Assembly: GCA_049701195.1 (NCBI GenBank)
Contig: JBNATU010000005.1
Coordinates: 9,015-73,014, forward strand
Length of the DNA: 64,000 nt
Reading direction: 5' to 3'
Source of the DNA: Moorellaceae bacterium
Lineage (GTDB): Bacteria; Bacillota; DSM-521; Neomoorellales; Neomoorellaceae
Shown: in pieces, positions 15,091 through 64,000 of the stretch
How the letters are laid out: each line of letters opens with the position of its first letter
How positions within the stretch are numbered: the first letter of the stretch is position 1
Translations under genes and position numbers: made by a program
The notes under the pieces: generated by a model
Told to the model about the DNA's origin: nothing
The model's input: only the letters and a program-made list of their open reading frames with translations
The model's database searches: none

Positions 15091-16332
15091 TTATTCTTTA
15101 GTAAGGGTTACTGTCTGGCCAATTTCTTCTTCGGTCTCCACCATCACTCCAACTCGCCAATGCCCTCCTTCCTCCCAGGTTTGTACTATCTTTTCTCCCA
15201 GTATCCTAGAGCGGGCCGGTATTACCCTTCTTAGAGCAGCTAAGGCCTGCTCTTGAGCTCGGGCTTCGGCTTGTTTCCGGGTGAGGAGCGCCCGCTCTAC
15301 TGAGGTTTCAAAATAAGTCATAATAATCAGTTCGACAGGTATAGTAAAATTCCTCCAGGAAGGCAGGCGCAAAATCTTATTTTCTTGCCTGTAGGTAGTG
15401 AAAGGAGAGGCTGCTTCCCCCTTTAGCAGGATTTCACGATGGGGCAGACGTAACAACAGGGCTGTGGCCTGTCGCCCGGTCAAAATCTCTTTAACTTCCT
15501 CTTTCCCGACTTCGGCCTCAACTTCATACCAGACGCGGGCCCGTACAATACCCCTGGCCCGGACCAGGCGGGGCTGTAGCGGGGAGGTGTTCTGTGTACC
15601 AGATTCCGGTGGTCCTTCGGCCGGTGGCGGCAAAATTATGCCGGAAATGAGAATATCCCCTTGGCGAACCGTATCGCCCACGGCTACTCTTCCCTGGCCG
15701 CTTAAAACTAGTATTTCAGTAATAAGGCCGTCCTTGGCCGCCAGGATGTGCGCCGGCAGTTCGGTTTCCGTTCCCGGAGGAGGAAAGAGTTTTTCTACTA
15801 CCTCTATCCGGGCCGTAGCCCCCCGAAAGCTCACCCCCACCCACGCCAGTTGGGGCACCTTCAATAATATTTCCTGTTCTATATGGCGCACGTTCAATTT
15901 GCCTTTCCAGGCCCCCCTACCTAAACCGGAAGATTCTGCTGCGGCCAGTATTTGTTCACGGCTAACTTTTTTAAGTTCATTTAAAGGTAGCACGTCCACT
16001 ACCCAGACAAAGGTGGAGAGAAGATAGAGGCCCGCAAGGAAAAGAAGGAACCCGGAAAGAAACACCCGCCTCTTTCTCAGCCGACGCCACCAAAAATACG
16101 GTCCCTGTTTGTCCAGGATCCGCACGCGACAACCGGTCTGACGAACCACCGGCCGCAGGCGCAAGAAATGGCGGAGAGACATGCAGGCTTGTATTTTCTC
16201 TCCAGATAGGCGATTGAGGTCCCAGAAAGTAATATTGCGGTTGAGGGCCAGGTTGAAAAACTTCTCTAGCTTCTGGCCTTGAATTTCTATAATGACGTAA
16301 CCTTCTGGGAAGGCCATCCATCTGCGCCACAT
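15091..16332 (-). CDS. yqfD: Sporulation protein YqfD
   Basis: 413 aa with the YqfD-type N-terminus (GYVIIEIQGQKLEKFFNL) and a central TM helix. It follows yqfC. Confidence 0.85.
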   Translation of the reverse strand: MWRRWMAFPEGYVIIEIQGQKLEKFFNLALNRNITFWDLNRLSGEKIQACMSLRHFLRLRPVVRQTGCRVRILDKQGPYFWWRRLRKRRVFLSGFLLFLAGLYLLSTFVWVVDVLPLNELKKVSREQILAAAESSGLGRGAWKGKLNVRHIEQEILLKVPQLAWVGVSFRGATARIEVVEKLFPPPGTETELPAHILAAKDGLITEILVLSGQGRVAVGDTVRQGDILISGIILPPPAEGPPESGTQNTSPLQPRLVRARGIVRARVWYEVEAEVGKEEVKEILTGRQATALLLRLPHREILLKGEAASPFTTYRQENKILRLPSWRNFTIPVELIIMTYFETSVERALLTRKQAEARAQEQALAALRRVIPARSRILGEKIVQTWEEGGHWRVGVMVETEEEIGQTVTLTKE

Positions 16333-16351
16333 GGGCCAGTTTTCCTCCCTA

Positions 16352-16654
16352 TCACCCCAGGCTTATCCTTTTGATTATCCCTTCCACCGTAATGGCCTCC
16401 GGGCGAACAACCCTGAGTTTTAGATCCTCACCGTTAATTTTTATTTCTCCCAAAGTGACGCTAACCTGGACCAGGTCTTTCTCATAGGCGATAAGGCCGC
16501 GGTGGTTTTCCACGATAAGTCTGCTATTGCCGATGAGGGTTAAGCGGGGCAAATCTAAGACCGCTTCAGGGGGTAAATCTAAGAAGTCAGTCACCTGCCT
16601 TTTAGCCTGCCGGATACGGTTGGCCAGCCTTCTGGCCTTAAGGCGTCTGGCCAT
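16352..16654 (-). CDS. yqfC: Sporulation protein YqfC
   Basis: 100 aa with the YabP/YqfC family pattern (LTLIGNSRLIVENHRGLIAYE). Confidence 0.85.
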   Translation of the reverse strand: MARRLKARRLANRIRQAKRQVTDFLDLPPEAVLDLPRLTLIGNSRLIVENHRGLIAYEKDLVQVSVTLGEIKINGEDLKLRVVRPEAITVEGIIKRISLG

Positions 16655-16858
16655 AGCCGCCCCTCCCTCCCACTAATCTATGCCTTTTCCCCCAGAAAAA
16701 GACCCTCCTGAACGAGGTTATCGCCCCTTTTCTCTAGGAGCTTCTTATGTGTGCCTTATGCGAGGCTGTTTCGCTGGGTTTTACGCCGGCCCAACAGCCC
16801 GGCCGAGAATCATCCCCACTTCTTCTGTCTCCCCCTGCGAAAAGCAGCCACCCGGCAT

Positions 16859-16888
16859 AAAAAAGCCCGGCCTAAAACAGACCGGGCT
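16859..16888 (-). terminator. Rho-independent terminator after rpsU
   Basis: The minus strand reads AGCCCGG-tctgttttagg-CCGGGCT followed by TTTTTTAT. Confidence 0.7.
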
Positions 16889-16984
16889 TCCTTTCTCAGT
16901 AGTCGCTTTGACGGGCAGACTTAAAGCAAACTCTCTGGAGGGAAGGCAAAACACTCAAGCGTAAACCCTTTCCCCTTTCTTCCT

Positions 16985-17161
16985 TTAGCGCCAGCGCCGC
17001 CTCTTAGCGGCCTGCGATTTCTTTTTGCGCCTGACACTAGGCTTTTCATAATGCTCACGTTTACGGATCTCCGCGAGCACTCCTGCTTTCTGGCAAAGAC
17101 GTTTAAATCGACGCAAGGCACTGTCCAAGGTTTCATCTTTACCAACTCTAACCTCGCTCAC
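16985..17161 (-). CDS. rpsU: 30S ribosomal protein S21 (58 aa, below the ORF-track threshold)
   Basis: GTG start 6 nt after GGAGGGAGGGATAAGG. Translation: [58 protein letters not shown]. Confidence 0.9.
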
Positions 17162-17331
17162 CTGACCTTATCCCTCCCTCCGGCCCTACTGCGACTACTA
17201 ATAGAGGACCTAATGATCATTAAGAACCCCGCGTACTTCACCATCTTGCGCTATCTTAAGCTCCCTTAATCCTTTTTTGCCCTTGTACTTATACTTCCCT
17301 TACTACTTATCTTTTACTTTCCTTACCCCAG

Positions 17332-17370
17332 GTTTCCTGTGGCTGTTTCCTGTGGCTGTTTCCTGTGGCG
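17332..17370. repeat. Perfect tandem repeat, 3 x 13 bp (GTTTCCTGTGGCT)
   Basis: GTTTCCTGTGGCT GTTTCCTGTGGCT GTTTCCTGTGGCG, 170-210 nt upstream of the rpsU start. Confidence 0.9.
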
Positions 17371-17398
17371 CTCGCTCTGTATGCCCCTATAGCTATTT

Positions 17399-17425
17399 AT
17401 TCCACACATTTTGCCGTTTTCCTCT
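17399..17425 (-). promoter_or_regulatory. Sigma-H-type promoter candidate (proximal, upstream of rpsU)
   Basis: The minus strand reads AGAGGAAAA-cggcaaaatgt-GTGGAATAA. This matches the B. subtilis sigma-H consensus RNAGGAWWW-N11-12-RNNGAATWW. Confidence 0.4.
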
Positions 17426-17471
17426 CGCCAGGCCCAAGTTAAATTCTTCGTTGCCGCCTAATACTTTTGGT

Positions 17472-17534
17472 ACGGAAATAGCCTTTAGGTGTATTTCCAT
17501 AAAATGGTTACACCCCTCGGGCATGACCGGTTAG
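17472..17534 (+). repeat. Copy A of a ~65-nt hairpin-containing repeat
   Basis: ACGGAAATAgcctttaggtgTATTTCCATAAAATGGTTACACCCCTCGGGCATGACCGGTTAG. A reverse-complement homologue lies at 53483-53556. Confidence 0.6.
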
Positions 17535-17612
17535 TAAGAAAACAACCCTATTTTCATGCGTGGCCGTACCCCAGGAGCTGATTACTCTGTCTATCCTCTA
17601 CGGATTTACTTT

Positions 17613-17639
17613 ATTCCACATTTATCTCTTTTTTCCTCT
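17613..17639 (-). promoter_or_regulatory. Sigma-H-type promoter candidate (distal, upstream of rpsU)
   Basis: The minus strand reads AGAGGAAAA-aagagataaat-GTGGAATAA. It is part of a ~45-nt segment duplicated 214 nt downstream, at 17399-17425. Confidence 0.4.
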
Positions 17640-17790
17640 CAGCCTTACAGGGACTTTATCCTTGCCTTGTGCAACGTAGCTGCTCCCTTGTTCCCGGCGT
17701 CACGTCAGATCATTCTTATGGCCAATTGGGGACATACTTCCGTACAGTAACCGCATTTCATCGGTTATCCCCTCTAACTAAGTTTAGCTT

Positions 17791-18132
17791 TCAGCAAAGG
17801 TTCCTGAGCTGTCTTCCTCCCAGGAGGTGAAAATGGAGATGGTATATGACCTGCCCGCCCTCCTGTTTACAATTATTCACCAGGCGAAAGCCCCGGTCGG
17901 CCAATCCCTGTTCACGGGCCAGATTAACGGCTACCAGATGAAGGTGACCGATAATCTTGGCGTCCTCCTCCGTAATGGCCGTTAGGTCCGGAATATGCTT
18001 GCGAGGAACTAACAAAATATGCACCGGAGCTACCGGTCGAATATCCTTAAAAGCAACTACATATTCATCCTGGTAAACCATTTCTGCCGGCAGTTCTCCG
18101 GCTATTATTTTGCAAAAAATGCATTCGGACAT
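17791..18132 (-). CDS. HIT family (histidine triad) nucleotide hydrolase
   Basis: 113 aa with the histidine triad HLHFHLLGG. Confidence 0.9.
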   Translation of the reverse strand: MSECIFCKIIAGELPAEMVYQDEYVVAFKDIRPVAPVHILLVPRKHIPDLTAITEEDAKIIGHLHLVAVNLAREQGLADRGFRLVNNCKQEGGQVIYHLHFHLLGGRQLRNLC

Positions 18133-18243
18133 AAATCTTTGGGCCCCCTCTATAATAAATCTATAATTTGTTCGGTAAATAGCCGCTATTGTATTCCTTC
18201 TCCCTTTCTGGCCAAAATCCTTCCCGCAAACCGCTTGCCGTTC

Positions 18244-19564
18244 TTAGGAAATTTTTTCGCCCCAAACTTTGTCCGTACGCCATTCCAGAAGCCGCACCGG
18301 CAGCAAGCGTCCTGTCCAATCTCCTGCTGCAGCAAAAACGACCGTTAGATAATTACCGGTATGGCCCTCCCAAAGACTTTCTTTTTCACTTATCATCTCC
18401 TCGGCCAGAACCTCCATAACCTCTCCTAAAAAGCTCCTGGCATATTCCTCTTCCAGCCTTTTAGCCAGACTCCTTAGGCGGGCCACGCGCTCTTTCTTAA
18501 CTTCGGGTTCTACTTGCTCCGGCATGGCGGCCGCCGGCGTACCTGCCCGAGGAGAATAGGGAAATACATGGATACGGGCAAAGGCGGCCTCTTGGGCTAC
18601 TTCCAGAGTATGGCGGAAATGCTCCTCTTTTTCACCCGGGAAACCCACTATAATATCGGTAGTTATAGCGGCGCGAGGCCTTCCGGAACGCAGTAGGCGA
18701 AGCAGATGTAAATATTCCCTGCTGGTATACCGCCTTCCCATGCGCTGAAGGATAAAGTCATCTCCGCTTTGGAGAGGAATGTGAAAATGAGGGCAGATCT
18801 TTTCCTCTTCCGTTAAAGTACGGATCAATTCCGGCGTAAAATCCAAGGGATCGATGGAGCTCACCCGGATCCGCCCCAAGCCGGGCAGTTTCAGGAGTTG
18901 CCGGAGCAAATAACTCAAATCGATGCCCTGCTGCGCATCGCGGCCATAGGCACCGGTGTGGACCCCGGTCAAAACTATTTCTTTATAACCGGCCGCCACC
19001 AGCTTTCGGACTTCTTCTACCACCAGTTCCGGGGCTCTACTGCGCAAGGGCCCCCGTGCGTAAGGGACTATACAGTAAGTACAATACTCCTCACAGCCCT
19101 CCTGAATTTTTATAAAAGCCCTGGCCCTGTGGACCTGACTTACAGGTAACTCCTCAAAGGGCTCGCCCTCTTCCAGTTCCCTTACCGCGTTGATAATTTT
19201 CCCGGTACGGCGAGCCTCTTCTACCAGTTCTACCACCCGGGATCTATCTTTGGTGCCCACTACCACATCCACCCCGGGAATGCCCAGAACCTCTTCCGGG
19301 GCCACCTGGGCATAGCAGCCGGTAACCGCCACCACCGCCTCCGGATTGTTGCGCAGGGCCCGGCGAATCATCTGTCGGGATTTCCGGTCGCTCAGGTGGG
19401 TAACCGTACAGGTATGCACCACATAAACGTCCGCCCGGTCCTCGAAGGGCACTATTTCGTAGCCGGCAGAGCGAAAAAGACCTTTAAAAGCTTCCAATTC
19501 GTTCTGGTTCACTTTACACCCCAAGCTGGTCAGTGCCACCCGCGGTGCTGCCATCCCCAGCACC
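18244..19564 (-). CDS. mtaB: tRNA t6A37 methylthiotransferase MtaB
   Basis: MTTase N-terminal domain (LGCKVNQ), radical-SAM CEEYCTYC and a TRAM C-terminus. I prefer ATG 19564 behind GGGAGGAGG. The ORF-track maximum is 19587. Confidence 0.9.
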
Positions 19565-20314
19565 TCCTCCCAGATCTCCCCATTCATACATAAGGGCGGC
19601 CAGACAGACCAAACCCGCTGTCTCGGTGCGCAAAATACGCGGTCCCAAGCCTATCACCCGTCCTCCTGCCTGCCGGGCCAGTTCCACTTCCGTACGGCTT
19701 AAGCCCCCTTCCGGACCTACCAGAAGGGCCACATGAGCAGGAGGTTTTACCCTGGACAACACCTCCTTTAATCCCAGGCTCCGCTCTTCTTCCCAAAGTA
19801 CCAGCAGGAGAGTTTGGCCGGGAAGCCGGGTCAGAGCTGAAGCCAGCTCTATAGGACCCTCTACCAGGGGTACATAACTGCGGCGGCTCTGCTGAGCCGC
19901 CGCCCTGGCTATCTTCTGCCAGCGCTCTTTCTTCCTGGCCGCCGTCTTATCCTCCAAGTGGGTTATTACCCTTTCCGTAAGTACCGCCACTATCCTCTTA
20001 ACTCCCAATTCGGTACATTTCTCTATAATTAATTCCATCTTGTCGCCCTTGGGTATTCCCTGCAACAAAGTAACGGATAAGGGGGGCTCACTGGAGGCAA
20101 GGGGCTCCAACACGTCTGCCTCCACTTCTCCCTTACGAACTGCTGTCACCCGCCCTTTGAAAAGTCCTCCCCGGCCGTCAGCTAAGGTTATCTCCTCCCC
20201 TATTCTCAAGCGTAAAACCCGAGAAGCATGATGGCCCGTTTCCCCTCGAAGAATCACCTTGGGGCTATTAAGCTGCTCATCAGGTATAAAAAAATGGTGG
20301 GCCACGTGGCTCAC
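19514..20314 (-). CDS. rsmE: 16S rRNA (uracil1498-N3)-methyltransferase RsmE
   Basis: HHFFIP N-terminus and SPOUT motif GPEGGLSRTE. GTG 20314 overlaps the prmA stop (GTGA); GTG 20305 is an alternative. A Gly-rich C-terminal tail overlaps mtaB by 51 nt. Confidence 0.85.
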   Translation of the reverse strand: MSHVAHHFFIPDEQLNSPKVILRGETGHHASRVLRLRIGEEITLADGRGGLFKGRVTAVRKGEVEADVLEPLASSEPPLSVTLLQGIPKGDKMELIIEKCTELGVKRIVAVLTERVITHLEDKTAARKKERWQKIARAAAQQSRRSYVPLVEGPIELASALTRLPGQTLLLVLWEEERSLGLKEVLSRVKPPAHVALLVGPEGGLSRTEVELARQAGGRVIGLGPRILRTETAGLVCLAALMYEWGDLGGGAGDGSTAGGTDQLGV

Positions 20315-21174
20315 CCTTTCCTCGCCACCAGGGTCACCCAATCTCCCTGGACCTTTTGCGCCCTTAGAGTAAACCCCTCAGCCTTCAGCGCTGCCCTCAT
20401 TTCGGGGGAGCGCGGGCTAATAATACCTCCTAGAATAATATGCCCTCCCGGACGCAGAACTCTGGACGCTTGGGGGAGCAAAACCAGGAGTACGTCGGCC
20501 ACAATGTTGGCCACCACCAAATCGGCCAGATCCTTCACTCCACGCAGCAAATCGCCTTGTTGAACTTTAACTTTGTCCGCCACCCCGTTGCGCTCTACAT
20601 TCTCCTGGGCCGCCTTCAAGGCCACCGGATCGTTATCGATAGCCACTACGCGGCCGGCACCCAGCAAAGCCGCAGCTATGGCTATAATCCCCGACCCGGT
20701 ACCTACATCATATACCGTAGCTCCCGGTTCTAGCCACTTTTCCAGCATTTCCAAGGCCATGGCCGTAGTAGCGTGGGTACCCGTGCCAAAGGCCATCCCC
20801 GGGTCCAGCTCAATAATTATCTCCCCGGACCCGGGTACATAATTCTCCCAGCTCGGTTTGACTACCAGGCGACTGCCTATTCTTACCGGCTTATAATAAG
20901 CCTTCCAAGCGTTAGCCCAGTCTTCTTCCTTCACGGTCTTACAAGAAAGCCCGACCAAGCAATCCGGAAAATATCGGCCTAGCCGGTTTAAACCTTCTTT
21001 CAGCTTTTCCCAACGGTCAGGCCATAATGCATCCTGGGGTAAATAACCCCGAATGATGAGGGGGCTTCTCTCATCTTCGATGATCAGGCCTTGAGCCCCA
21101 ACTGCATAAAAAATATCAGCCGCCGCCTCGCCGGCCTCCTCGGCAATGGTAATACTAATCTCCTGCCACTTCAT
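20311..21174 (-). CDS. prmA: Ribosomal protein L11 methyltransferase
   Basis: MKWQEISI N-terminus and SAM motif DVGTGSGIIAIAA. Confidence 0.9.
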   Translation of the reverse strand: MKWQEISITIAEEAGEAAADIFYAVGAQGLIIEDERSPLIIRGYLPQDALWPDRWEKLKEGLNRLGRYFPDCLVGLSCKTVKEEDWANAWKAYYKPVRIGSRLVVKPSWENYVPGSGEIIIELDPGMAFGTGTHATTAMALEMLEKWLEPGATVYDVGTGSGIIAIAAALLGAGRVVAIDNDPVALKAAQENVERNGVADKVKVQQGDLLRGVKDLADLVVANIVADVLLVLLPQASRVLRPGGHIILGGIISPRSPEMRAALKAEGFTLRAQKVQGDWVTLVARKG

Positions 21175-21184
21175 AGTCTTATTA

Positions 21185-22351
21185 TTAACCCATAAAAGCA
21201 TCTTTTACTTTCCTAAAAAAGCCTTTGTCTTTATTATTCCTGTCCTCTTCCGAGGGCTCCCAGCCGGAAAGACGGGCGAATTCTCGCAGCAACTCTTTCT
21301 GCTTCTCCGTGAGATTCTTAGGAATGACTACGCGTACCAATACATGCTGGTCGCCCCGGCCTGCGCCGTTTAGGCGGGGAATCCCCTTGCCTTTGAGGCG
21401 AAAAGAAGTGCCGCTCTGCGTTCCTTCAGGTATGGTTAATCGGGCTTTGCCGTCCAAAGTAGGCACTTCTATCTCATCACCCAGAGCAGCCTGTACCATG
21501 GATATAGGTATCTCGCATATCACGTCAAACCCTTCACGGCGGAAGATCTTATGGGGCCGGACATTAATATATACGTAGAGATCACCCGCAGGCCCGCCCC
21601 GCTCGCCCGCTTCTCCTTCCCCTACCAGACGCAGCCGTGCGCCGTTATCCACTCCGGGCGGAATTTTGACCTTAATCTTACGCGTACGGTGTACTTGACC
21701 ACGGCCGCGACAAGTTTTACAAGGGTTGGGGATAATAGTACCCGTCCCCTGGCACTGGTGACAGGTACGGATGCTTTGAAAATAGCCGAAGGCCGTGCGC
21801 TGGGATACCCGGACCTGTCCCGTACCCTGGCAGGTCGGGCAGCTTACCGGATAAGTGCCCGGAGCAGCACCGGACCCACCGCAGTCAGGGCACTTCTCCA
21901 GCCGTGGTACCCCGATTTCTTTTTCCGCCCCAAAAGCCGCCTCTTCAAAAGAAATATCCAGGTCCACCCGTATATCGGCACCGCGCTGGGGACCCGGTTG
22001 GCGCCTTCGGCTGCCGCCGAAAGCCTCCCCAAAAAACATGTCGAAGAGGTCGCCGAAGCCCCCAAAGTCCGTAGCCGAGCCGCCGAAATCAAACCCGCCA
22101 AAGCCGGGACCGGCGCCCGGTCCACCTTCTACGCCGGCGTGACCGAATTGATCATAACGGGACCTCTTCTCCGGATCGCTTAACACCTCATAGGCTTCCT
22201 GGATTTCCTTAAACTTTTCTTCCGCCTCTTTGTTACCCGGATTCAAGTCCGGGTGATACTGCCGTGCCAGGCGCCGGTAAGCTTTTTTTATTTCCTCCTG
22301 TGAGGCCCCCCGTTCCACCCCCAGGACCTCATAATAATCGCGCTTCGGCAT
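21185..22351 (-). CDS. dnaJ: Molecular chaperone DnaJ
   Basis: J domain with HPD, a G/F-rich linker and four CxxCxG zinc repeats. I prefer the [12 protein letters not shown] start. The ORF-track maximum is 22366. Confidence 0.95.
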
Positions 22352-22366
22352 GACCATCACCGGCAC

Positions 22367-24217
22367 TTATTTCTTATCATCATCCATAACACGGTAATCG
22401 GCGTCTACCACCTTATCCCGGCCCGATCCAGGACCTTCCGTCCCGGTAGCCTGCCAAGCCTGCCCGGAGGCTCCCTGAGCCTGCTGATAAACCTTGGTGG
22501 TGAGGCCGTAGAGGGCCTGGGACAAGGCTTCCATTTTCTCCTTAATCTTACCGATGTCTGCGCCACCCAGGGCGTCCTGAAGCTCCTTCTTGGCCTGTTC
22601 AATGCGCTCTACATCTGCCTTGTCGGCCTTCTCCTTAAACTCCTTCAGCGTACGCTCTACCTGATAGATAAGGGAATCCGCCTGGTTCCTCGTCTCCACC
22701 TCTTCCTTGCGCCGCCGGTCAGCTTCAGCATACGTTTCGGCTTCCTTAATCATACGCTGAATTTCTTCTTCGCTTAAGCCGCTGGAAGATTTAATGGTTA
22801 TGGCCTGCTGCTTGCCGGTGGCTAAATCTTTAGCCGATACGTGGACAATGCCGTTGGCGTCTATATCAAATTTGACTTCAATTTGGGGTACACCCCGCGG
22901 CGCCGGCGGGATTCCCGTCAACAGGAAGCGGCCCAAGCTCTTGTTGTCAGCCGCCATGGGACGTTCGCCTTGGAGCACGTGGATTTCCACCGTCGTCTGG
23001 TTATCCGCCGCTGTAGTGAAGATTTGGCTTTTAGAAGTAGGAATGGTGGTATTGCGCTCAATAATCTTGGTAAATACTCCGCCCAAGGTTTCGATACCCA
23101 GAGATAGGGGCGTAACATCCAGCAGCACTATATCCCTTACTTCTCCGGACAAGACTGCGCCTTGAATGGCCGCCCCCATGGCCACGCACTCGTCAGGATT
23201 GATCCCTTTGTGGGGTTCCTTACCTAAAATTCTCCTTACCGTTTCCTGTACCAAAGGAACACGCGTGGAACCACCGACTAAGATTACCTTATCGATATCC
23301 TCGGGCTTAAGCCCGGCATCCGCCAAAGCTTGCCGGATGGGCTCTACCGTTTTTTCTACCAGGTCGGAAATAAGCTCTTCAAATTTGGCCCGCGTCAAAG
23401 TAACATCTAGGTGAACCGGACCACTGGAAGTAACTGCAATAAAGGGCAAGTTGATATTGGTACTGGTAACGCTGGAGAGCTCGATCTTAGCCCTCTCGGC
23501 AGCTTCCTTTAGGCGCTGCATGGCCATCCTATCCTGGCGCAAATCCACACCATGTTCGCGCCGGCAGATATCTATAAGGTAATTCATGATACGTTCATCA
23601 AAATCATCGCCGCCCAAGCGGTTGTTGCCGCTGGTGGCCTTCACTTCAAAGACTCCATCGCCCAGCTCCAGGATAGATACGTCAAAGGTGCCCCCACCCA
23701 GGTCGTAAACCAATATCGTCTGGTCTTCGCCCTTGTCCAGACCATAAGCCAGGGCCGCCGCTGTGGGCTCATTTATGATGCGTAAAACTTCTAGTCCGGC
23801 AATGCGGCCGGCATCCTTGGTAGCCTGCCGCTGGCTGTCGGTAAAATAAGCCGGAACGGTGATAACGGCTTGGGTGACCTTCTCTCCCAGATAAGCCTCG
23901 GCATCGGCCTTTAATTTCTGCAAAATCATGGCCGAAATTTCCTGAGGAGTATATTCTTTATCATCTATCCTCACTTTATGGCTGGTTCCCATATGCCGCT
24001 TAATGGACATAATCGTGCGCTCGGGATTCATAATAGCCTGGCGCTTGGCAGCCAGGCCCACCAGGCGCTCACCTTCCTTGGTGAAGGCCACCACCGAAGG
24101 GGTGGTCCTTCCACCTTCGGCATTGGGAATTACTACCGCTTCACCGCCTTCCATAATGGCCATACAAGAGTTGGTAGTACCTAGATCAATACCCAGCACT
24201 TTGCCTTTATTCGCCAT
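22367..24217 (-). CDS. dnaK: Molecular chaperone DnaK (Hsp70)
   Basis: Hsp70 signatures [16 protein letters not shown] and VILVGGSTR. Confidence 0.97.
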
Positions 24218-24228
24218 AATGCTACCCC

Positions 24229-25032
24229 CTATTCCTCCTCAGATTCTCGTGGAATTTTCTCTTCCCGTTCTTCGCCCTTTCCCTCTTGAACGGCGGAACC
24301 GCCGGCCACTGCCACTTTTACCAGGGCCGGTCGCAGAAGACGCCCGTGCAAGAAATAACCTTTGCGCAGTTCCGCCATCACCAAGTTATGCCGAGCTACA
24401 TCTTCCGTTTCTTCCGTAGCTACTACTTCATGGTAGGCAGGATTAAAGGGTTGCCCTACGGCCTCCACCTCGGTTAACCCTTGCCTATGCAAAATGTCCC
24501 AGAGTTGGCGACTAACCATTTCTATACCGGTTAACAGTGACCCCTTTTCTCCCCCGGCTCTGCCGGTTTCCAAGGCCCAGCCTAGATTATCCAGTACAGG
24601 CAAAAGCTCCCTTATAAGGTTAGCCGCAGCTTTTTCTTGGGCTTCTTGCTGTTCCCGCCGGACACGCTTGCGATAGTTGTCAAAATCCGCCTGTAAACGC
24701 ACCAGCTGGGAACGGAGTGTCTCTATCTCCCTCTGTTTGGCCGCCAGCTCTTCTTTAAGGGCCGCGATTTCGCCTTCCTCAATTCTCTCTTCCTCACTTT
24801 TCTCGACTACACCGGCTTCATCTATGCTTTCTATCTCTCGTCCTTCTGCTTCGCCTTCCTCTAAACCTGCGGCCGGGGCTCCCTCGGGTGTACCGTTCTT
24901 GCCCGTATCCTCCTCGGTCCCTTCCTCGACGCCCCTTTTATTGATAGATACGGATATGCTGTCTCTACCTTGGCCGCCGCCGTTCGTGTCGTCCTGCAAT
25001 TTTCTCACCTGTTCTTCCTTTTCCTTAGCCAT
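24229..25032 (-). CDS. grpE: Nucleotide exchange factor GrpE
   Basis: GrpE C-terminal fold (DFDNYRKRV...) after a long acidic N-terminal region. I prefer ATG 25032 (MAKEKEE). hrcA-grpE-dnaK-dnaJ gene order. Confidence 0.9.
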
Positions 25033-25088
25033 AAACTTCCCCTTCACCCCTTCCGGCAAAAAGACCAAACACACCTCCAAGTGCCGGC

Positions 25089-26123
25089 CTAACCGCATAA
25101 CTTTTCTAAAGCCCGGGAGAGATTGCGCGCCACATATTCCAGAACAGAAATGGTGCGAGAATAATGCATACGCGTAGGTCCCAGAACTCCTACATTACCG
25201 ATAACTTCTCCGTTTATTTCATAGGTTACGGTGAGTATGCTGCAATTATTAATGTCCTTATACTTGTTTTCCCGCCCGATCTTAACGGTAAGCCCTGCCG
25301 GAGGGCCTTCGGCAAACAGTTCGCGTAACGTTTCGGTCCTTTCCAGGAGAGATAACAGCCCTTTAACTTTATCAATACTCCTGAATTCGGGTTGTTCGAA
25401 AAGGTTAATAGTGCCGTCCAAAAAGATTCTCTCTTCTTTTTCCAATCTGCTCAGCTGTTCCAGCAGCTCTATCAAAAGGGAACAAAGTTCCTTATGCTCG
25501 GAAACAAGTTCCCGATAAACATTGTTTAACACTGCCGGTTTCAACTCTTCCAACATTACGCCTTGCAGGCGCTCATTTAACATACAGGAAAGACGGAAAA
25601 GTTCGGGGCTGCTTACTCCTTTCGGCACATTAAATAGATGGTGTTCTACCAACCCGTTGCTGGTAACCACTACCAGCAAGGCTTTGCCCGGAGACAGATA
25701 TAACAGCTGTACCTGCTGAATATGCGACTTCCCCTGATAAGGTCCCACCGCCACCGCTGCATAGCTGGTCATTTCGGCAATTAGTCGGGTAGCGTCGGCC
25801 AGAACCTGTTCGATTTCCCCTATTTTTTGCTCGAACCGCCGGCGAATATATTCCTTTTCGGCAGCACTAAGCTCATGCTTCTCCATAAGACAGTCCACGT
25901 AATAACGATAACCTAAATCAGATGGGATGCGGCCGGCAGAAGTATGAGGCTGCTCAATAAGGCCGAGTTCCTCCAGGTCGGCCATTTCATTGCGGATGGT
26001 GGCCGGACTCACCCCTAAATTGTAGCGCCGGGCAATGGTACGGGAACCTACCGGCTCTCCCGTAGCAATATAATCTAAGATAATAGCCTCTAGAATCTTC
26101 CTTTTCCGTCCCTCCACCCGCAT
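25089..26123 (-). CDS. hrcA: Heat-inducible transcription repressor HrcA
   Basis: 344 aa with a winged-helix N-terminus (RKILEAIILDYIATGEPVGSRT). It is the first gene of the dnaK operon, and a CIRCE element lies upstream. Confidence 0.95.
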   Translation of the reverse strand: MRVEGRKRKILEAIILDYIATGEPVGSRTIARRYNLGVSPATIRNEMADLEELGLIEQPHTSAGRIPSDLGYRYYVDCLMEKHELSAAEKEYIRRRFEQKIGEIEQVLADATRLIAEMTSYAAVAVGPYQGKSHIQQVQLLYLSPGKALLVVVTSNGLVEHHLFNVPKGVSSPELFRLSCMLNERLQGVMLEELKPAVLNNVYRELVSEHKELCSLLIELLEQLSRLEKEERIFLDGTINLFEQPEFRSIDKVKGLLSLLERTETLRELFAEGPPAGLTVKIGRENKYKDINNCSILTVTYEINGEVIGNVGVLGPTRMHYSRTISVLEYVARNLSRALEKLCG

Positions 26124-26143
26124 GGATACTCACCTTCTTTTGA

Positions 26144-26170
26144 TTAGCACTCAGGTATGTCGAGTGCTAA
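26144..26170 (-). promoter_or_regulatory. CIRCE operator (HrcA binding site) of the hrcA-grpE-dnaK-dnaJ operon
   Basis: TTAGCACTC-aggtatgtc-GAGTGCTAA is a perfect match to the CIRCE consensus TTAGCACTC-N9-GAGTGCTAA. Confidence 0.9.
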
Positions 26171-26184
26171 AAACTTTCATTAAA

Positions 26185-26213
26185 AACATAGCACCCGCCC
26201 GGCGATTTGTCAA
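26185..26213 (-). promoter_or_regulatory. Sigma-A-type promoter of the hrcA operon
   Basis: The minus strand reads TTGACA-17 nt-TATGTT, immediately upstream of CIRCE. Confidence 0.55.
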
Positions 26214-26225
26214 GCAAATTCCGCC

Positions 26226-26494
26226 CTGGTGTATCCCCACTTTTTGCAGGGGAGGCCTGCTTGGACTTGAAAGCGAGCGAACAAGCCTTCGCGGTAGTCA
26301 AACTTAATGAAGCCGAAAGCGAAGGCGGACCCGAGGCTTTTGAGAGGCCTGAGGCCGGCAACTGAGACAGGATATTTAAATTCTGCCGGGAAGTCCGCCT
26401 TAAGCTCTAAAGCTGAATGATAGTTTGGCCCGCGAGGGAAACTTTCGCGAGCGAAAGCCAAGCAGACCTAGGAGCAAAACTGGGGATACGTCAG
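26226..26494 (+). mobile_element. MITE-like element, family A, copy 1 (269 bp)
   Basis: The ends are CTGGTGTATCCCCAC... and ...CTGGGGATACGTCAG, within ~45-bp imperfect TIRs. It is flanked by a perfect 9-bp direct repeat AATTCCGCC (26217-26225 and 26495-26503). There is no credible ORF inside. Confidence 0.75.
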
Positions 26495-26553
26495 AATTCC
26501 GCCTCCTCTCCCAAGAGTGGGGATACGCCAGAATTCCGGCGGTTCGCCCGGGC

Positions 26554-27681
26554 CTACATAAAGGCTACAAAGACTTCGTTAGCCAGGGGTATACCCTTCT
26601 CTGTAAGACGAAGATGATCGCCCTGTACTTCCACCAGTCCCCAAGCAGTTAGGCGCTCTAGTTCTTTCTGGTAAACATCCACCAATTCTTCTCCAAAGCG
26701 GTTTCTAAATTCCTTTAAACTAAGCCCGCGCAGCAGGCGCAGGCCCAAAAAAACGGTTTCCGCCATCTGTTGGCGTCGGGTCAATATCTCCTTTTCCGCT
26801 ATAGGCCACTTTCCCTTTTCCACGGCCTCGCAATAAGCCTCTAAAGAGGCATAATTTTGCCATCGCTCCCCCTCCCAATGGGAAGCGGCTCCCGCGCCTA
26901 AGCCCAAGTAAGGACTATTCTCCCAGTAAACCAGGTTGTGCTGGCACTCCCAACCGGGGCGGGCAAAGTTGGATATTTCGTATTGCTCATATCCTGCGGC
27001 TCTCAACTTGGCCCTGGCCCTATCATACATAGCCACCATCTCTTCCTCGGCGGCCGGACGAAGTTTTCCCGCCGCTTGCCGCCGGCCCCAGACGGTTTCC
27101 GGCGTTAGCTCCAGAGCGTAGGTAGAGAGATGCTCGGGTTCCAGGGCCAGAGCCCGATTCAAGGTATCCTCCCAGTCAGATAAACTTTGGCCCGGCAGAC
27201 CATATATCAGGTCCAGGTTTATGTTCTCAAACCCCGCTTTCCGGGCCCAATCAAAGGCCTGGTATATCTCCTCGGTCCGGTGTATGCGGCCCATAGCCCG
27301 CAGCATATTATCGTTAAAGGACTGGGCTCCCAGAGAAAGACGGTTAACTCCGACAGCGCGCAAGGCTTTTAACTTGGGCAGCGTAACCGTCCCGGGATTG
27401 ACCTCCAGGGTAATCTCGGCCGTTTCTTCTATACCCAAGATATTCCTGACCCGAGATATTAATCCCAATAAGTCGCCACCGGACAGATAGGTGGGAGTGC
27501 CGCCTCCCAGGTAAAGGGTATCGGCTTTACCCGGACGCAAAGCAGCGGCTACCAGTTCCATTTCCCGGGTCAGGGCTTGCAGGTAGCGCCGGACTCCGGA
27601 GGCGGAGACCCCGGGATAGGAATGGAAGTCACAATAGTGACACTTCTTTCTACAAAAAGGAAGGTGGATGTAGAGGTTCAC
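26554..27681 (-). CDS. hemW: Radical SAM heme chaperone HemW (HemN-like)
   Basis: CRKKCHYCDF radical-SAM motif and a HemN_C domain. lepA-hemW synteny. Confidence 0.9.
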   Translation of the reverse strand: MNLYIHLPFCRKKCHYCDFHSYPGVSASGVRRYLQALTREMELVAAALRPGKADTLYLGGGTPTYLSGGDLLGLISRVRNILGIEETAEITLEVNPGTVTLPKLKALRAVGVNRLSLGAQSFNDNMLRAMGRIHRTEEIYQAFDWARKAGFENINLDLIYGLPGQSLSDWEDTLNRALALEPEHLSTYALELTPETVWGRRQAAGKLRPAAEEEMVAMYDRARAKLRAAGYEQYEISNFARPGWECQHNLVYWENSPYLGLGAGAASHWEGERWQNYASLEAYCEAVEKGKWPIAEKEILTRRQQMAETVFLGLRLLRGLSLKEFRNRFGEELVDVYQKELERLTAWGLVEVQGDHLRLTEKGIPLANEVFVAFM

Positions 27682-38725: not shown

Positions 38726-38995
38726 TCAACTGGCGATGGCCCGGTTAAAGCGCAGCTGCAATCTAGATTTTTTCCGGGCGGCCGTATTGGGATGTAAAAC
38801 GCCCTTAGTCACCGCTTTATCGATAGTCCGGATAGCCTGCCTTAACTGCTCTTTAGCCTTTTCCATTTCCCCGCCGGCTAAAGCTATTTCGAATTTCTTG
38901 ATGGCAGTTTTTACCATAGATTTAATGGATTTATTGCGCAAAGTGCGCTTCCGAGTAAGCTCAATACGTTTTTTGGCCGATTTCGTGTTGGCCAC
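38726..38995 (-). CDS. rpsT: 30S ribosomal protein S20
   Basis: The ANTKSAKKRIELTRKRTLRNKS N-terminus is typical of S20. I prefer GTG 38995, 7 nt after GGAGGAGGTGA. The ORF-track maximum is 39028. Confidence 0.9.
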   Translation of the reverse strand: MANTKSAKKRIELTRKRTLRNKSIKSMVKTAIKKFEIALAGGEMEKAKEQLRQAIRTIDKAVTKGVLHPNTAARKKSRLQLRFNRAIAS

Positions 38996-39059: not shown

Positions 39060-39447
39060 CCGAGTTATCCCCACTTTTGCCTCTAGGCCTGCTTAGCTTG
39101 CGCTCGCTCCAAAAACCCTCGCGGGCAGGACTTTTGCTCGACCTAAAAGCTTAAGGCGGGGTTCCCTCGACAGTTGGCATTCTTGCCGCCGGGCCGGTCT
39201 TAGGCCGTCTTAGGCCTCTCTATCCTAAAACCCCGCCTCCGCTTTCGGCCTCGTTAAGTTTGACGAAAGGCGAAAAGATTGGCCTGAGGCCCCAATAGCC
39301 TCGCGGACGACAACCGAGACAGGAAGTTTGAGTTCTGCCGGAAAGCCAGCTCTTTCAGCCTTTAAGCCCCGTAAAAGTCCTGCCCGCGAGGGAAGCCCTA
39401 AGCGAGCCGAAGCCGAGCCCTGTAAGAACGGGGGGATGATAACTCAG
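39060..39447. mobile_element. MITE-like element, family A, copy 2 (388 bp, rearranged head-to-head)
   Basis: The ends are CCGAGTTATCCCCAC... and ...GGGGGGATGATAACTCAG. Both outer arms carry the same arm type (GCTCGCTCCAAAAACCCTCGCGGGCAGGAC and its reverse complement). The flanks GGTTGGCTA and GGTTAACTG match at only 6/9. Confidence 0.6.
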
Positions 39448-41172: not shown

Positions 41173-41190
41173 GCCTACTACATTATTCCG

Positions 41191-41319
41191 CCTTGTAAGC
41201 GAACGAGTACGCCTTCGCAGTAGCCAAACTCAAGCTCAGCGCAAGGCGGAAGCGGTTCCGAAGAAAGAAACGGCTCGGCCGGGAAGGGGCTTGCCCGTCT
41301 TAAGTTTCGCCGGAAAGCC
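41191..41319 (+). mobile_element. Truncated, degenerate family-A copy 3
   Basis: CTTGTAAGCGAACGAGTACGCCTTCGCAGTAGCCAAACTCAAGC...GTTTCGCCGGAAAGCC aligns with the interior of copies 1, 2 and 4. It ends at the transporter stop codon. Confidence 0.4.
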
Positions 41320-42774
41320 TCACCGGAAAAACAGTAAGGTATCCAGGATGAAGAGCGGTATAAGAATGCAAACGGACCAGCCCATATAGCCGAAGAAGCT
41401 GGGCATCTTGATTTGGTTCTCTTCGGCAATAGAGCGCACCATAAAATTGGGAGCATTACCTATATAGGTATTCGCACCCATAAAAACCGCCCCGCAAGAT
41501 ATCGCCATAAGCATTTTGGGAGCCACCAGCCCCAAGGTAGTCTGCACGCCCGCAGTCGCCCCCAGGCTGGTAGCGGTAGTAAGAAATACCAGGTAAGTAG
41601 GCGCATTGTCTAAGAAACTGGAGAGAGCTCCCGTGGCCCAGAAAAAGTGAGCCGGCTGGGTAAGCCCGAGTTCTGCCCCGCGGGCGTGGAGGATTTCCAG
41701 AGCAGGAATCATGGTCATAAAAATCCCGGCGAAAAGGGTGGCCACTTCCTTGATAGGCCCCCAGGTGAAGCGGTTATCCCGGCGGATAACGTAAGGTGTA
41801 GTCCGGAAGGAAAGATAAGCGGCCAAAAGTATCAACAAGTCCCGGATGAGATTAATATAAGGGAGTACTAAAGTCTCTTCTCCGTGGCGCCATAGAACGA
41901 TACCGTACAGGTCCCCGGTCTTCTGGTCGGCGAAGGCCGGATTCTTGGCCAGAAAACCGCTCAAAATGACGGAACCCACGATCAGGCCCAGATAAAAAAG
42001 ATTCTGCAACCCTTCTACCCGGAGGGGTTCAGGGGCTTGAACCCTTTCGGGAATATTTTCTTTCCGGTAGTAATAACTATCCACCAGGAAGTAAAGGATT
42101 AAGAGGATTATAACGTTAAAGCCCATAGGGACTATGAGCTTCATAGTCCAGAAGAAAGGCACACCCCTTAAGAAACCCAAAAAAAGCGGCGGGTCTCCCA
42201 AGGGAGTAAGCGAACCACCGATATTGGATACCAAAAAAATAAAGAAAATGATAATATGCGTCTTATAGCGCCGCCATTCGTTGGCCCTTATGACGGGCCT
42301 GATCATCAGCATACTGGCCCCGGTAGTACCGATCCAGCTGGCCAGGAAAGTGCCTACTAAGAGAAGTAAAGTATTTACGGCCGGCGTACCCCGGAGAGTG
42401 CCGCGCAAAATTATACCCCCGGATACCACGAAAAGACCGAATAAGAGGATGATAAAGGGCAGATAGTCGAGCAAGTAGACCTCTATAGCTTTCACCAAAG
42501 CGGTTTCCCCGCCGAAGGAAAGCAAGAAGGGTACAAAAAAGATTAGGGACCAGAATAGGCTCACCTTGCCCATATTATGTTCCCACCAGTGGGGGTTCAC
42601 CAGGGGGCAGATGGCAATAGAGAGCAACATGCCCACGAAAGGAAGCACGCTCCATAGGGGCAACACCCGTCCTAATTCTTTCCCCCCTGAGGCCCAGGCT
42701 ATACTCGGCACCAGAGCAACCCCGACGGCGGCCAACAGAGAAATTAGCAGGAAGGCTGGGTGTGGCTTTTTCAT
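41320..42774 (-). CDS. ArsB/NhaD-superfamily ion transporter (sodium:proton antiporter-like)
   Basis: 484 aa with about 12 TM helices and a signal-like N-terminus. The family assignment is by overall pattern only. Confidence 0.7.
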   Translation of the reverse strand: MKKPHPAFLLISLLAAVGVALVPSIAWASGGKELGRVLPLWSVLPFVGMLLSIAICPLVNPHWWEHNMGKVSLFWSLIFFVPFLLSFGGETALVKAIEVYLLDYLPFIILLFGLFVVSGGIILRGTLRGTPAVNTLLLLVGTFLASWIGTTGASMLMIRPVIRANEWRRYKTHIIIFFIFLVSNIGGSLTPLGDPPLFLGFLRGVPFFWTMKLIVPMGFNVIILLILYFLVDSYYYRKENIPERVQAPEPLRVEGLQNLFYLGLIVGSVILSGFLAKNPAFADQKTGDLYGIVLWRHGEETLVLPYINLIRDLLILLAAYLSFRTTPYVIRRDNRFTWGPIKEVATLFAGIFMTMIPALEILHARGAELGLTQPAHFFWATGALSSFLDNAPTYLVFLTTATSLGATAGVQTTLGLVAPKMLMAISCGAVFMGANTYIGNAPNFMVRSIAEENQIKMPSFFGYMGWSVCILIPLFILDTLLFFR

Positions 42775-52892: not shown

Positions 52893-53002
52893 TTTCCCTT
52901 ACTCCTCCCAAGCTAAGACTCGCCGGCCTCAGGTATCCTGCCCCTGCAGGAGTTTGAAACCTTCCCCGGGCGGTTTAAAACTTGAGCTACGCTCGCTTTT
53001 GC
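52893..53002 (-). promoter_or_regulatory. Structured 5' leader of rplU (candidate L21 leader)
   Basis: A ~110-nt leader follows the promoter. Helices read by eye: AGCTCAAG/CTTAGCT closing AAACC..GGTTT and TCCTGC-agggg-GCAGGA. The closing helix abuts the GGGAGGAG RBS. Confidence 0.45.
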
Positions 53003-53032
53003 AGTGTAGCACATCTCCCAAATGCCTGTCAA
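53003..53032 (-). promoter_or_regulatory. Sigma-A-type promoter of the rplU-prp-rpmA operon
   Basis: The minus strand reads TTGACA-18 nt-TACACT. Confidence 0.55.
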
Positions 53033-53044
53033 GACAGTCGGACC

Positions 53045-53315
53045 CTGGCGTATCCCCAGTTTTCGCTCGCAAGGCCTGCTTGGACTTGAGAGGCGAACGA
53101 CTAAACCCGAGCGGTAGCCAAACTCAAGCGTGGCGAAAGGCGAAGGCAGGCCCGAGGCTTTTGAGAGGCCCGAGGCCGGCAACCGAGACAGGATGTCGAG
53201 TTTGCCGGGAAGCCTGCCGGAGCCTTGAGCCAAGCAAAAGTCCTGCCCGCGAGGGTTTTTGGAGCGAGCTTTAAGCCCAAGCAGGCCTATAAGAACAAAA
53301 CCGGGGATGCGCCAG
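53045..53315 (+). mobile_element. MITE-like element, family A, copy 4 (271 bp)
   Basis: The ends are CTGGCGTATCCCCAGTTTT... and ...AAAACCGGGGATGCGCCAG, within ~45-bp TIRs. The 9-bp flanks are AGTCGGACC and ATTCGGACC (8/9). Confidence 0.8.
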
Positions 53316-53482
53316 ATTCGGACCCCGGCCCGCTCCCCCTCTGTTTTTTCGCCGGATTCCTTTCGCTGGTCCTCCGTTCCATCTACCCTTTCACACCACT
53401 TTCACGCCGCTTTCACTCCACCGCACTATCCGGGTGAGAAAAATTGTGGCGAAAATCATCTTCGGAAATACTTTTTAGAAAG

Positions 53483-53556
53483 CTAACCGGTCATGCCTGG
53501 GGGCACAACTACTTATGAAAATAGCGCCGATAATAGCGCCGAGGGCTATTTTCGTG
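53483..53556 (-). repeat. Copy B of the ~65-nt hairpin-containing repeat (inverted relative to copy A)
   Basis: The reverse complement reads CACGAAAATAGC..GCTATTTTCATAAGTAGTTGTGCCCCCAGGCATGACCGGTTAG and aligns with 17472-17534. Confidence 0.6.
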
Positions 53557-56172: not shown

Positions 56173-56352
56173 CCAGGTTATCCCCGGCTCTTCTCCCGAA
56201 ATTTACGAGTTTGAAGCTACTTTCCCGTATCGTCCTAAGATTTCTGTCGTCCTAGATTGCCGTTCCCGGCTTTAAAGCCCGGAACGGCCGCGAAGGCCGG
56301 CTCGCTTTCAGGTCCCGACAAACCTGCCGGGCAAAAAGCGGGGATAACGCGG
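56173..56352. mobile_element. Possible short, degenerate family-A-related element (180 bp)
   Basis: Facing ends CCAGGTTATCCCCGG and GCGGGGATAACGCGG. The interior has a 12-bp hairpin at 56259-56288. The flanks match only 5/9. Confidence 0.3.
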
Positions 56353-63036: not shown

Positions 63037-63129
63037 CGCCGAAAGGAAAATGACCGGGGCTTTTTTCCTCTCCCTTCTTGCAAAATACGACAAACTCTTC
63101 CCTTACCCGCTGCACTATAGAAGTTCACT

Positions 63130-63397
63130 CTGGCGCATCCCCAGTTTTACCTCTAGGCCTGCTTGGGCTTAAAGCTCGCTCCAAAAACCCTCGCGGGCCA
63201 AACTAGCGCTTGGCTCAAGGCTCCGGCAGGCTTCCCGGCAGGATTTAAGCATCCTGCCTCAATTGCCGGCCTCGGCCATCCATGGCCTCGGGCCTGCCTT
63301 CGCCTTTCGCCACGCTTGAGTTTGGCTACCGCTCGTGTTTAGTCGCTCGCTTCTAAGCCTAAGCAGGCCTCCCCAGCAAAAACTGGGGATAACTCAG
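63130..63397 (-). mobile_element. MITE-like element, family A, copy 5 (268 bp, inverted relative to copies 1 and 4)
   Basis: The ends are CTGGCGCATCCCCAGTTTT... and ...AAAACTGGGGATAACTCAG. It is flanked by a perfect direct repeat AAGTTCACT (63121-63129 and 63398-63406). Confidence 0.8.
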
Positions 63398-63401
63398 AAG
63401 T

Positions 63402-64000
63402 TCACTCCGTTGCGCTTCCCCCTGCGCCGGTCGGGGAAAGTTGGCCGGTCAATCCGAAATACCGGGCAAAGACGTCCCGCGCCACCACTCCGGCGGAATC
63501 GCCACCATGGCTGGCATACTCGATCACCCCGGCAAAGGCGATCTGGGGATCATCATAAGGCGCAAAGGCGACAAAAATACCGTAAAAATCGCGGCTCTTG
63601 TCATCCCCCACCAGTCCCGTCTGGGCCGTTCCCGTCTTGGCCGCCACTTTTATATTCGGCGGAAAATCGCGAAAAAGGAAGGAGGCGGTTCCTTGGGAGG
63701 ATTGGGTTACGGCCAGCATGCCTTTCCGCACCTCTTCCAAAATAGAGGCCGGAACATTTACTTTTTGCACTATTTCCGGAGAATATTCCTGTTTTACCTG
63801 ACCTTCCGGAGACAGCACCCTTTTTACCAGATAAGGGCGGTAGCGGGTCCCGCCGTTAGCCAGGGTGGCTACGTAATTCGCCAGCTGAAGGACGGTATAA
63901 TTGTTGGCTCCCTGTCCGATAGAGGTATTGTAAGTATCGTATGGATGCCAGGTAGTTTCAAAATTAAAGTTGATCTCATATTGAGCCTTCAATTGGCGCA
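63402..64000 (-). CDS. mrdA: Penicillin-binding protein 2 (MrdA-like transpeptidase), C-terminal part; the gene runs off the window
   Basis: Transpeptidase-domain motifs (SIGQG, KTGTAQ) with a stop at 63402. The reading frame is open to the window edge. Confidence 0.85.
   Translation of the reverse strand, partial: RQLKAQYEINFNFETTWHPYDTYNTSIGQGANNYTVLQLANYVATLANGGTRYRPYLVKRVLSPEGQVKQEYSPEIVQKVNVPASILEEVRKGMLAVTQSSQGTASFLFRDFPPNIKVAAKTGTAQTGLVGDDKSRDFYGIFVAFAPYDDPQIAFAGVIEYASHGGDSAGVVARDVFARYFGLTGQLSPTGAGGSATE

Follow-up and report, generated by a model that had tools for sequence, protein, structure and literature searches.

A palindromic miniature transposable element of Moorellaceae with 9-bp target duplications and a fixed insertion register beside TTGAC(A) hexamers

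What kind of element occupies the spacer in front of rplU in the genome of an uncultured Moorellaceae bacterium, how did it come to be there, and why does it stand at exactly the distance it keeps from the promoter of that gene? The question is raised by a 64,000-nucleotide stretch of contig JBNATU010000005.1 (assembly GCA_049701195.1, positions 9,015 to 73,014 of the forward strand; hereafter the window), in which a 271-bp unit at 53045-53315 starts with CTGGCGTATCCCCAGTTTT and finishes with AAAACCGGGGATGCGCCAG. An earlier note on this DNA had read the unit as the exemplar of a family of miniature inverted-repeat transposable elements (MITEs), with imperfect inverted ends, flanking 9-mers that agree at 8/9 positions within 53036-53324, and no protein-like open reading frame (ORF). 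A second reading of the sequence agrees exactly with these boundaries, ends and flanks, and the ORFs that run through the element match no protein family, with zero matches in Pfam. The MITE interpretation is also supported by the results described below, but the fixed register in which the element is inserted beside the -35 hexamers of promoters went unnoticed in that note.

We consider it likely, with good confidence, that the unit belongs to a high-copy, non-autonomous MITE family which makes 9-bp target duplications, inserts in register with a TTGAC(A) motif and would be mobilized by an IS10-like transposase of the DDE type. As a MITE the element is ordinary, and it is the fixed register of its insertions that is unusual. 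We know of no report of bacterial MITEs inserting in fixed register to promoter -35 hexamers. A literature search, of incomplete coverage, on this family, on MITEs in Moorella or Pelotomaculum and on targeting of insertion sequences (IS) or MITEs to sites adjacent to -35 boxes returned nothing relevant; on the basis of the literature, without a comparison with ISfinder, the family is apparently undescribed.

Target duplications, empty sites and the insertion register

That the element moves by transposition follows from its target duplications and from precise empty sites. Among 61 distinct two-ended copies, gathered from genome and metagenome collections as described below, 9-bp duplications were perfect in 32 and matched at 8/9 positions in a further 10 (42/61 at ≥8/9), so that duplication is general in the family, as the earlier note had proposed to check. 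In register, the flanking 9-mers have an identity of 0.80, which falls to 0.23-0.34 when they are slid by 1-3 bp. The insertion polymorphism which that note had also proposed to look for is found at two of the three full copies of the window: a Logan contig (L162), ~95-97% identical to the window, is without the copies at 53045 and 63130 and shows in their place precise empty sites with one 9-mer each (GGTCCGACT and AGTGAACTT), both of which fit a 9-bp staggered cut. These two insertions therefore postdate the divergence of the window and L162, while a relic at 56285-56350, being present in both genomes, predates it. The element is thus a recently mobile MITE. At one further locus, of the isolate Moorellaceae bacterium AZ2 (L082), the window is without the copy, and there the intergenic DNA is too diverged for a base-precise alignment of the empty site.

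From the 42 copies with duplications at ≥8/9 the pre-insertion targets were rebuilt, and these reveal sharply defined bases outside the duplicated segment, namely T, T and G at positions 4-6 beyond the duplication or, in mirror image, C, A and A at the opposite flank. Of the 42 sites, 34 carry a TTG separated from the duplication by exactly 3 bp, where chance would give 2.6% (P~7e-47); it stands on one side in 23 of these cases and on the other in 12, with one site carrying it on both. The same register appears when all 227 distinct element ends are taken, TTG being found at offset 13 in 75 of them, at offsets 12 and 14 in 14 and 9, and at other offsets in 0-9, compared with an expectation of ~3 for any one offset. 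The commonest hexamers in register are TTGACA (13), TTGACT (9), TTGACC (6) and TTGACG (6), with cTTGAC as the consensus. Neither arm of the element is favoured next to the TTG (a tally of 14 versus 21), and the motif is not brought by the element, since it is already there in both empty sites of L162.

When the sites are oriented by their TTG, a second signal, T-A-w-A-A-T, emerges 17 nt after the hexamer, often with TG just before it, and TAnnnT at a spacing of 16-18 nt occurs in 15/35 sites, compared with a background of 3.8-4.0% (P~1e-12). A large fraction of the copies are therefore direct upstream neighbours of recognizable sigma-A promoters, their duplication covering about -47 to -39, and in roughly 40% or more of cases the hexamer is the -35 box of a recognizable promoter of this class; an insertion that lands at about -39 to -47 spares both the core promoter and the gene. 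ORF direction, as a crude test of promoter status, is noisy in this GC-rich DNA (12 codirectional, 11 opposite, 6 with none), and reliance is placed for that reason on the -10 statistics and on the named downstream genes. In the window, the -35 box of the rplU promoter (table 1) is exactly 3 bp from the duplication of the 53045 copy, and this promoter is present already in the empty site of L162; the hrcA promoter adjoins the 26226 copy; and a probable rpsT promoter (TTGCGT-17-TAAAAT), read by eye and below the threshold of the promoter scan, adjoins the composite at 39062-39436. Elsewhere, the genes downstream of register sites include infC, rpsF, gyrB, those for a pyrophosphatase and an ArsR regulator, and tRNA genes.

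The mobilizing enzyme and the choice of target

The element would be moved in trans, in a cut-and-paste reaction, by a DDE transposase making 9-bp staggered cuts in the target, and the supplier would most likely be an IS10-like enzyme of the IS4 family. As a control, an IS4-like ISVsa5/IS10 copy of E. coli was read: it measures 1329 bp, carries the 9-bp duplication GGCCAAGCT on both sides and ends in CTGATGAATCCCC and CTGAGAGATCCCC (in a longer reading, CTGATGAATCCCCTAATG... and CTGAGAGATCCCCTCATA...). The MITE termini, starting CTGAnnnATCCCC, match both the outside and the inside end of IS10 at 10-11 of the first 13 bp, and the two ends of IS10 match each other at 10/13. Because of this end match, together with the shared length of the duplication, an IS10-like enzyme is most likely the best candidate mobilizer, although a parent element was not found in ~1.1 Mb of loci. 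Beside these likenesses, the MITE differs from IS10/Tn10 (IS4 family, IS10 group) in its longer, two-part inverted repeat with an inner AGGCCTGCTTGG box, in a target marked by cTTGAC on one side, 3 bp outside the duplication, instead of by the symmetric NGCTNAGCN, and in its host, a thermophile-related Firmicute lineage.

Several observations weigh against this assignment, or against a preference for promoters as such. No transposase bounded by MITE ends, i.e. no cognate enzyme, was found in ~1.1 Mb of loci, either by phmmer with the IS10 transposase or by a search for two ends separated by 0.5-5 kb and flanked by matching 9-mers, which recovered only the IS10 control and two gap-interrupted MITEs (L090 and L149). 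A scan of metagenomes with IUPAC 'not-T' positions, designed to exclude the MITE arms, gave 0 matches to a parent IS, and viral contigs scanned for MITE ends with a transposase gave none. The consensus target of IS10 is the symmetric NGCTNAGCN, of which no trace is seen in the duplicated 9-mers of the family, where target information is ≤0.21 bits per position. Moreover, the agreement at 10-11/13 with an IS10 end is of only modest significance given the number of IS families. A 9-bp duplication, in turn, is not by itself diagnostic of the IS4 family, since ISAba12 and MITEAba12 also make duplications of this length with unrelated ends (PMC6382973). As to the promoters, about a third of the TTG-adjacent sites are not obviously of this nature, having no -10 box or facing the 3' end of a converging gene. 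Furthermore, only insertions that survived are seen, so that a preference of the transposase and the effect of selection are inseparable in the promoter association.

In the light of these results, the earlier statement that CTG termini with 9-bp duplications are the hallmark of IS4-family elements holds as far as the IS10-like ends are concerned, these having been confirmed on a real copy, but not as regards the duplication, which is not exclusive to that family. Similarly, of the proposal of a non-autonomous derivative mobilized in trans, the MITE part is borne out, whereas an IS4-family parent did not turn up in the ~1.1 Mb of loci and is something that we infer.

It is possible, though doubtful, that a genuine MITE is mobilized here by a transposase outside the IS4/IS10 group, such as a 9-bp maker of the IS5 group or a member of an undescribed family, the IS10-like terminus then being due to convergence or chance. 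The failure to find an IS10-like transposase in the loci searched, the precedent of ISAba12 and MITEAba12, and a target preference which differs from that of IS10 would all agree with such an enzyme; against it stand the match of the CTGAnnnATCCCC termini to both IS10 ends and the identical duplication length, and also the fact that the only transposase lying near MITE copies is a poor candidate. The latter belongs to a 1393-bp IS of the ISL3 family (PF01610) in AZ2, with ends GGCTCT..., which agree with those of the MITE at 1-2/13 positions. No matching duplication was seen flanking either of its two AZ2 copies, and the usual duplication of the ISL3 family is 8 bp, compared with 9 bp in the MITE, so that this IS was rejected as the parent. 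Three ends that had no apparent continuation into MITE sequence (L133, L177 and L205) were likewise set aside, being truncated relics beside ordinary genes rather than the ends of a parent IS.

With regard to the target, the simplest reading is that the transposase would recognize a half-site, a single cTTGAC at a distance of 3 bp from the staggered cut being sufficient, whichever side it is on; selection may then remove genic insertions, leaving real promoters enriched among the survivors. This is preferred because about a third of the sites are not evident promoters (e.g. the 63130 copy, with TTGCGC at the 3' end of the PBP2 gene) and because promoters have no counterpart to the conserved C before the TTG. 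Selection alone, acting on insertions made without preference, is ruled out by the single-base precision of the register.

Alternatively, the association with promoters may come about through protein guidance, by the RNA polymerase holoenzyme (region 4 of sigma-A or the C-terminal domain of the alpha subunit) or by the DNA bend which it imposes just upstream of the -35 box, in the manner of yeast Ty3, which TFIIIB positions. The fixed register relative to the -35 hexamer and the strong -10 signal, which is frequently of the extended TG type, would be expected of such guidance, as would highly expressed targets (ribosomal protein, tRNA, infC and gyrB genes) and a motif that is one-sided with neither arm favoured on the TTG side. 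Two copies of the unrelated ISL3-family IS in AZ2 also lie 9 nt upstream of TTGACA, an observation limited to these two copies. We nevertheless regard guidance of this kind as unlikely, given the same third of sites without a -10 box or facing a converging 3' end, the 63130 copy among them, and given the C before the TTG. Equally improbable in our estimate is a promoter-homing transposon in the proper sense, whose integration at about -39 to -47 would be directed by sigma-A/RNA polymerase at the -35 hexamer or by a TTGACA-reading, sigma-like domain of the transposase.

The ISL3-family copies of AZ2 (L136 578-1970 and L108 2289-3694, ends GGCTCTAT...) have in common that the left end is 9 nt from TGTCAA, which serves a leftward promoter as its -35 box, and that the right end is beside a MITE copy. 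The two give a hint that the upstream edge of promoters is a general hot spot of transposition in these genomes.

Whichever agent sets the register, each insertion pushes whatever lies upstream of -40 (UP elements, activator sites) ~270 bp away, and the regulation of core genes may consequently have been rewired across the lineage. If the preference belongs to the transposase, as in the half-site reading, the family would offer a compact natural system for placing DNA just upstream of promoters without destroying them, and a clear case of a bacterial DDE element that targets a 'safe haven'; if the promoter-homing reading were true, it would be the bacterial equivalent of the way in which Ty3-type elements are directed to transcription-initiation complexes. 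Elements which target safe sites include the IS1397/ISKpn1 insertion sequences, which enter REP sequences, group IIC introns, found at terminators, and yeast Ty3, which is positioned by TFIIIB at the start sites of Pol III genes. With these the MITE shares a defined non-coding landmark and the avoidance of gene damage, but its landmark is a sigma-A -35-like hexamer, and the analogy is one of strategy, not of homology.

Ends, palindromic fold and the RNA alternative

The inverted ends of the family are ~40 bp long and each consists of two parts, a terminal 19-mer (consensus CTGAGTTATCCCCAsTTTT, in a looser form CTGnnnTATCCCCAsTTTT) and, after a variable spacer of 5-9 bp, the AGGCCTGCTTGG box; the end signature is CTGAnnTATCCCC. 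Across 42 aligned copies the 19-mer and the 12-bp inner box are nearly invariant at both ends. In being short, non-coding, of high copy number and for the most part intergenic, with terminal inverted repeats and target duplications, the element resembles other bacterial MITEs such as MITEAba12, Correia elements, RUP and Nezha, to none of which it is similar in sequence. MITEAba12, in particular, has in common with it a presumed mobilization in trans and 9-bp duplications, and differs in its ends, GGCTTTGTTGCACAAA (PMC6382973).

Each strand of the exemplar folds as one long hairpin (-142.7 and -139.6 kcal/mol, z=-7.4 and -8.5). Pairing extends over 97.4% of cells in the alignment of the 42 copies, and both partners change in 10 pairs, a number that is reached by 51/500 shuffles; the changes track subfamilies, which differ by central blocks that still pair. 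The pattern fits a maintained DNA palindrome and not a strand-specific RNA gene. The covariation analysis that the earlier note had recommended has thus brought out no strand-specific fold, covariation beyond the differences between subfamilies being weak. That note had also recognized no named repeat or RNA family in the unit, and indeed no tRNA is found on the element and no Rfam match, at the gathering threshold or at E≤1, nor is there a description in the literature searched.

It is very unlikely that the family consists of genes for structured non-coding or cis-regulatory RNA and is not primarily mobile. Such a function could draw on the very stable predicted fold and on the pairs of the central stem that change on both sides between subfamilies. 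However, folding is equally good on both strands, the number of such pairs is matched by shuffles, copies stand in either orientation relative to the neighbouring genes, Rfam matches are zero, and target duplications with precise empty sites show that the copies transpose. An extragenic palindrome of the REP/REPIN type, spread by a RAYT (IS200/IS605-like) enzyme, would likewise be palindromic, mostly intergenic and of high copy number, but is hardly credible here, 9-bp duplications being the rule in the MITE family, whereas REP/REPIN elements are not known to duplicate their target or to have inverted termini of the form CTG...CAG.

Copies in related genomes and in the window

Proteins identical to those encoded in the window occur in NCBI MAGs labelled 'Moorellaceae bacterium'. 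The nearest named relatives of the window genes are those of Thermanaeromonas and Moorella, and the DNA of the isolate AZ2 is ~73-80% identical to the window. Genome and metagenome collections were searched for the ends of the element with the pattern ATCCCCAGTTTT-N5-9-AGGCCTGCTT. The genome collection holds at least 83 loci and, among the matches listed, all are in Moorellaceae AZ2, the Peptococcaceae metagenome-assembled genome (MAG) UBA12545 and the Clostridia MAG DJKA97; the metagenome collection gave 54 loci, every one from the LDZR01/LDZS01 assembly. Many further copies, which the earlier note had proposed to count, are therefore present in at least four other assemblies (at least 130 loci, copy numbers being lower bounds). 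UBA12545 and LDZR01 represent one organism; exact-sequence duplicates were dropped, and the 42 target 9-mers are all distinct. In viral contigs, the 77 matches to a 15-base terminal pattern were all single, as chance would produce, and the specific pattern had no match.

Every matched end with enough sequence runs on into MITE sequence, and the length is 255-275 bp in 52/61 two-ended copies. Many matches sit 40-80 bp from the end of a contig, as expected of a repeat that breaks assemblies; in practice, the family interrupts short-read assemblies, with many of its copies left at contig ends. Shorter derivatives occur as well, i.e. an element of 57 bp consisting of the two ends alone (L207 9150-9206), one of ~143 bp (L138 4805-4947) and two of ~178 bp (L154 322-499 and L156 2833-3011). 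The short copy in L156 is flanked by a perfect 9-bp duplication, a sign that mobility may need no more than the ends.

One match falls in NZ_CP061968.1 ('Klebsiella pneumoniae plasmid unnamed3', L168), an unannotated record of 27 kb with 56% GC, in which 12259-19558 and 19740-27033 are inverted repeats of each other (99.6%), with a MITE copy at 19520-19778 in the middle. The remaining DNA is Moorellaceae-like (64% identity to an AZ2 locus) and not that of Klebsiella. The record is a fold-back artefact of non-Klebsiella origin, probably contaminant DNA, and was rejected as a Klebsiella copy of the MITE.

Within the window, the inventory was made with blastn of the 271-bp unit and an nhmmer profile built from 42 family copies, and yields three full copies, one composite and three relics (table 1), i.e. 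seven in 64 kb; the terminal pattern occurs 8 times, compared with 0.16 expected from shuffles. By blastn alone the unit finds the inverted full copy over 63130-63391 (85% identity) and the direct one over 26226-26494 (74%), with partial matches at 39067-39392 and 41199-41261. Both full-length relatives had been pointed out in the earlier note in these orientations (26226-26494 and 63130-63397), together with altered ones at 39060-39447 and 41191-41319, which resolve here into the composite and a fragment with slightly different limits; its count of at least five copies is exceeded by the relics at 56285-56350 and 26501-26531, which it did not list. The surroundings are, as it had stated, core housekeeping DNA, rplU-prp-rpmA-obg, hrcA, hemW, minC, the PBP2 gene and a radical-SAM pair being core Firmicute genes.

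Table 1. Elements, target duplications and adjoining promoters in the window (positions are those of the window).
Feature	Position	Strand	Description
Full-length MITE copy (exemplar), 271 bp	53045-53315	+	non-coding; whole unit a long imperfect palindrome; nhmmer E=1.6e-67
Left terminal inverted repeat	53045-53083	+	terminal 19 bp CTGGCGTATCCCCAGTTTT (53045-53063) and inner box AGGCCTGCTTGG (53072-53083)
Right terminal inverted repeat	53277-53315	-	inner box CCAAGCAGGCCT (53277-53288) and terminal 19 bp AAAACCGGGGATGCGCCAG (53297-53315)
Left copy of 9-bp target duplication	53036-53044	.	AGTCGGACC; present once in empty site of L162
Right copy of 9-bp target duplication	53316-53324	.	ATTCGGACC; 8/9 versus AGTCGGACC
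Second full MITE copy, 269 bp	26226-26494	+	blastn and profile; 3 bp from -35 of hrcA promoter; perfect 9/9 duplication AATTCCGCC at 26217-26225 and 26495-26503
Third full MITE copy, 268 bp	63130-63397	-	between PBP2 stop codon and minC; perfect 9/9 duplication AAGTTCACT at 63121-63129 and 63398-63406; TTGCGC 3 bp beyond
Composite, two partial copies head to head	39062-39436	.	profile positions 70-263 (-) and 78-257 (+); upstream of rpsT; degenerate 9-mer (6/9), TTGCGT 3 bp beyond
Truncated relic	41190-41320	+	profile positions 39-169; E=2e-14
Left-end relic	56285-56350	-	profile positions 3-72; also in relative L162
Solo MITE-end remnant	26501-26531	-	weak nhmmer match (E=0.42)
rplU promoter	53003-53032	-	TTGACA (53032-53027), 18-nt spacer, TACACT preceded by TG; promoter scan
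hrcA promoter	26213-26185	-	TTGACA-17-TATGTT with TG; adjoins 26226 copy

Around the hrcA-proximal copy the 9-mer is found three times (AATTCCGCC, AATTCCGCC and AATTCCGGC), the third, at 26532-26540, agreeing at 8/9 positions, and a 28-bp remnant of an element end separates the last two within 26495-26540. The solo remnant and the third 9-mer suggest an older insertion, and thus a target hit twice. A perfect CIRCE operator (TTAGCACTC-N9-GAGTGCTAA) lies at 26144-26170, between the hrcA promoter and hrcA.

The rpsT gene (ribosomal protein S20) is at 38726-38995 on the minus strand (TIGR00029, 102 bits), most likely with a GTG start; the mechanical ORF list stretches it to an ATG at 39028, overlapping the probable promoter. 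Between the rplU promoter and rplU, an RNA resembling the L21 leader is found at 52906-52985 on the minus strand, the match to RF00559 covering the full model at 31.2 bits, short of the gathering score of 36; we take it for a probable L21 leader, genuine but divergent. The same spacer as that of the 53045 MITE holds a second indel polymorphism: just past the stop codon of the DUF2344 gene the window has an extra ~63 bp at 53491-53554, absent from L162 and unrelated to the MITE, which contains a terminator-like hairpin on the minus strand (53523-53540, GGCGCTATTATCGGCGCT followed by ATTTTCAT).

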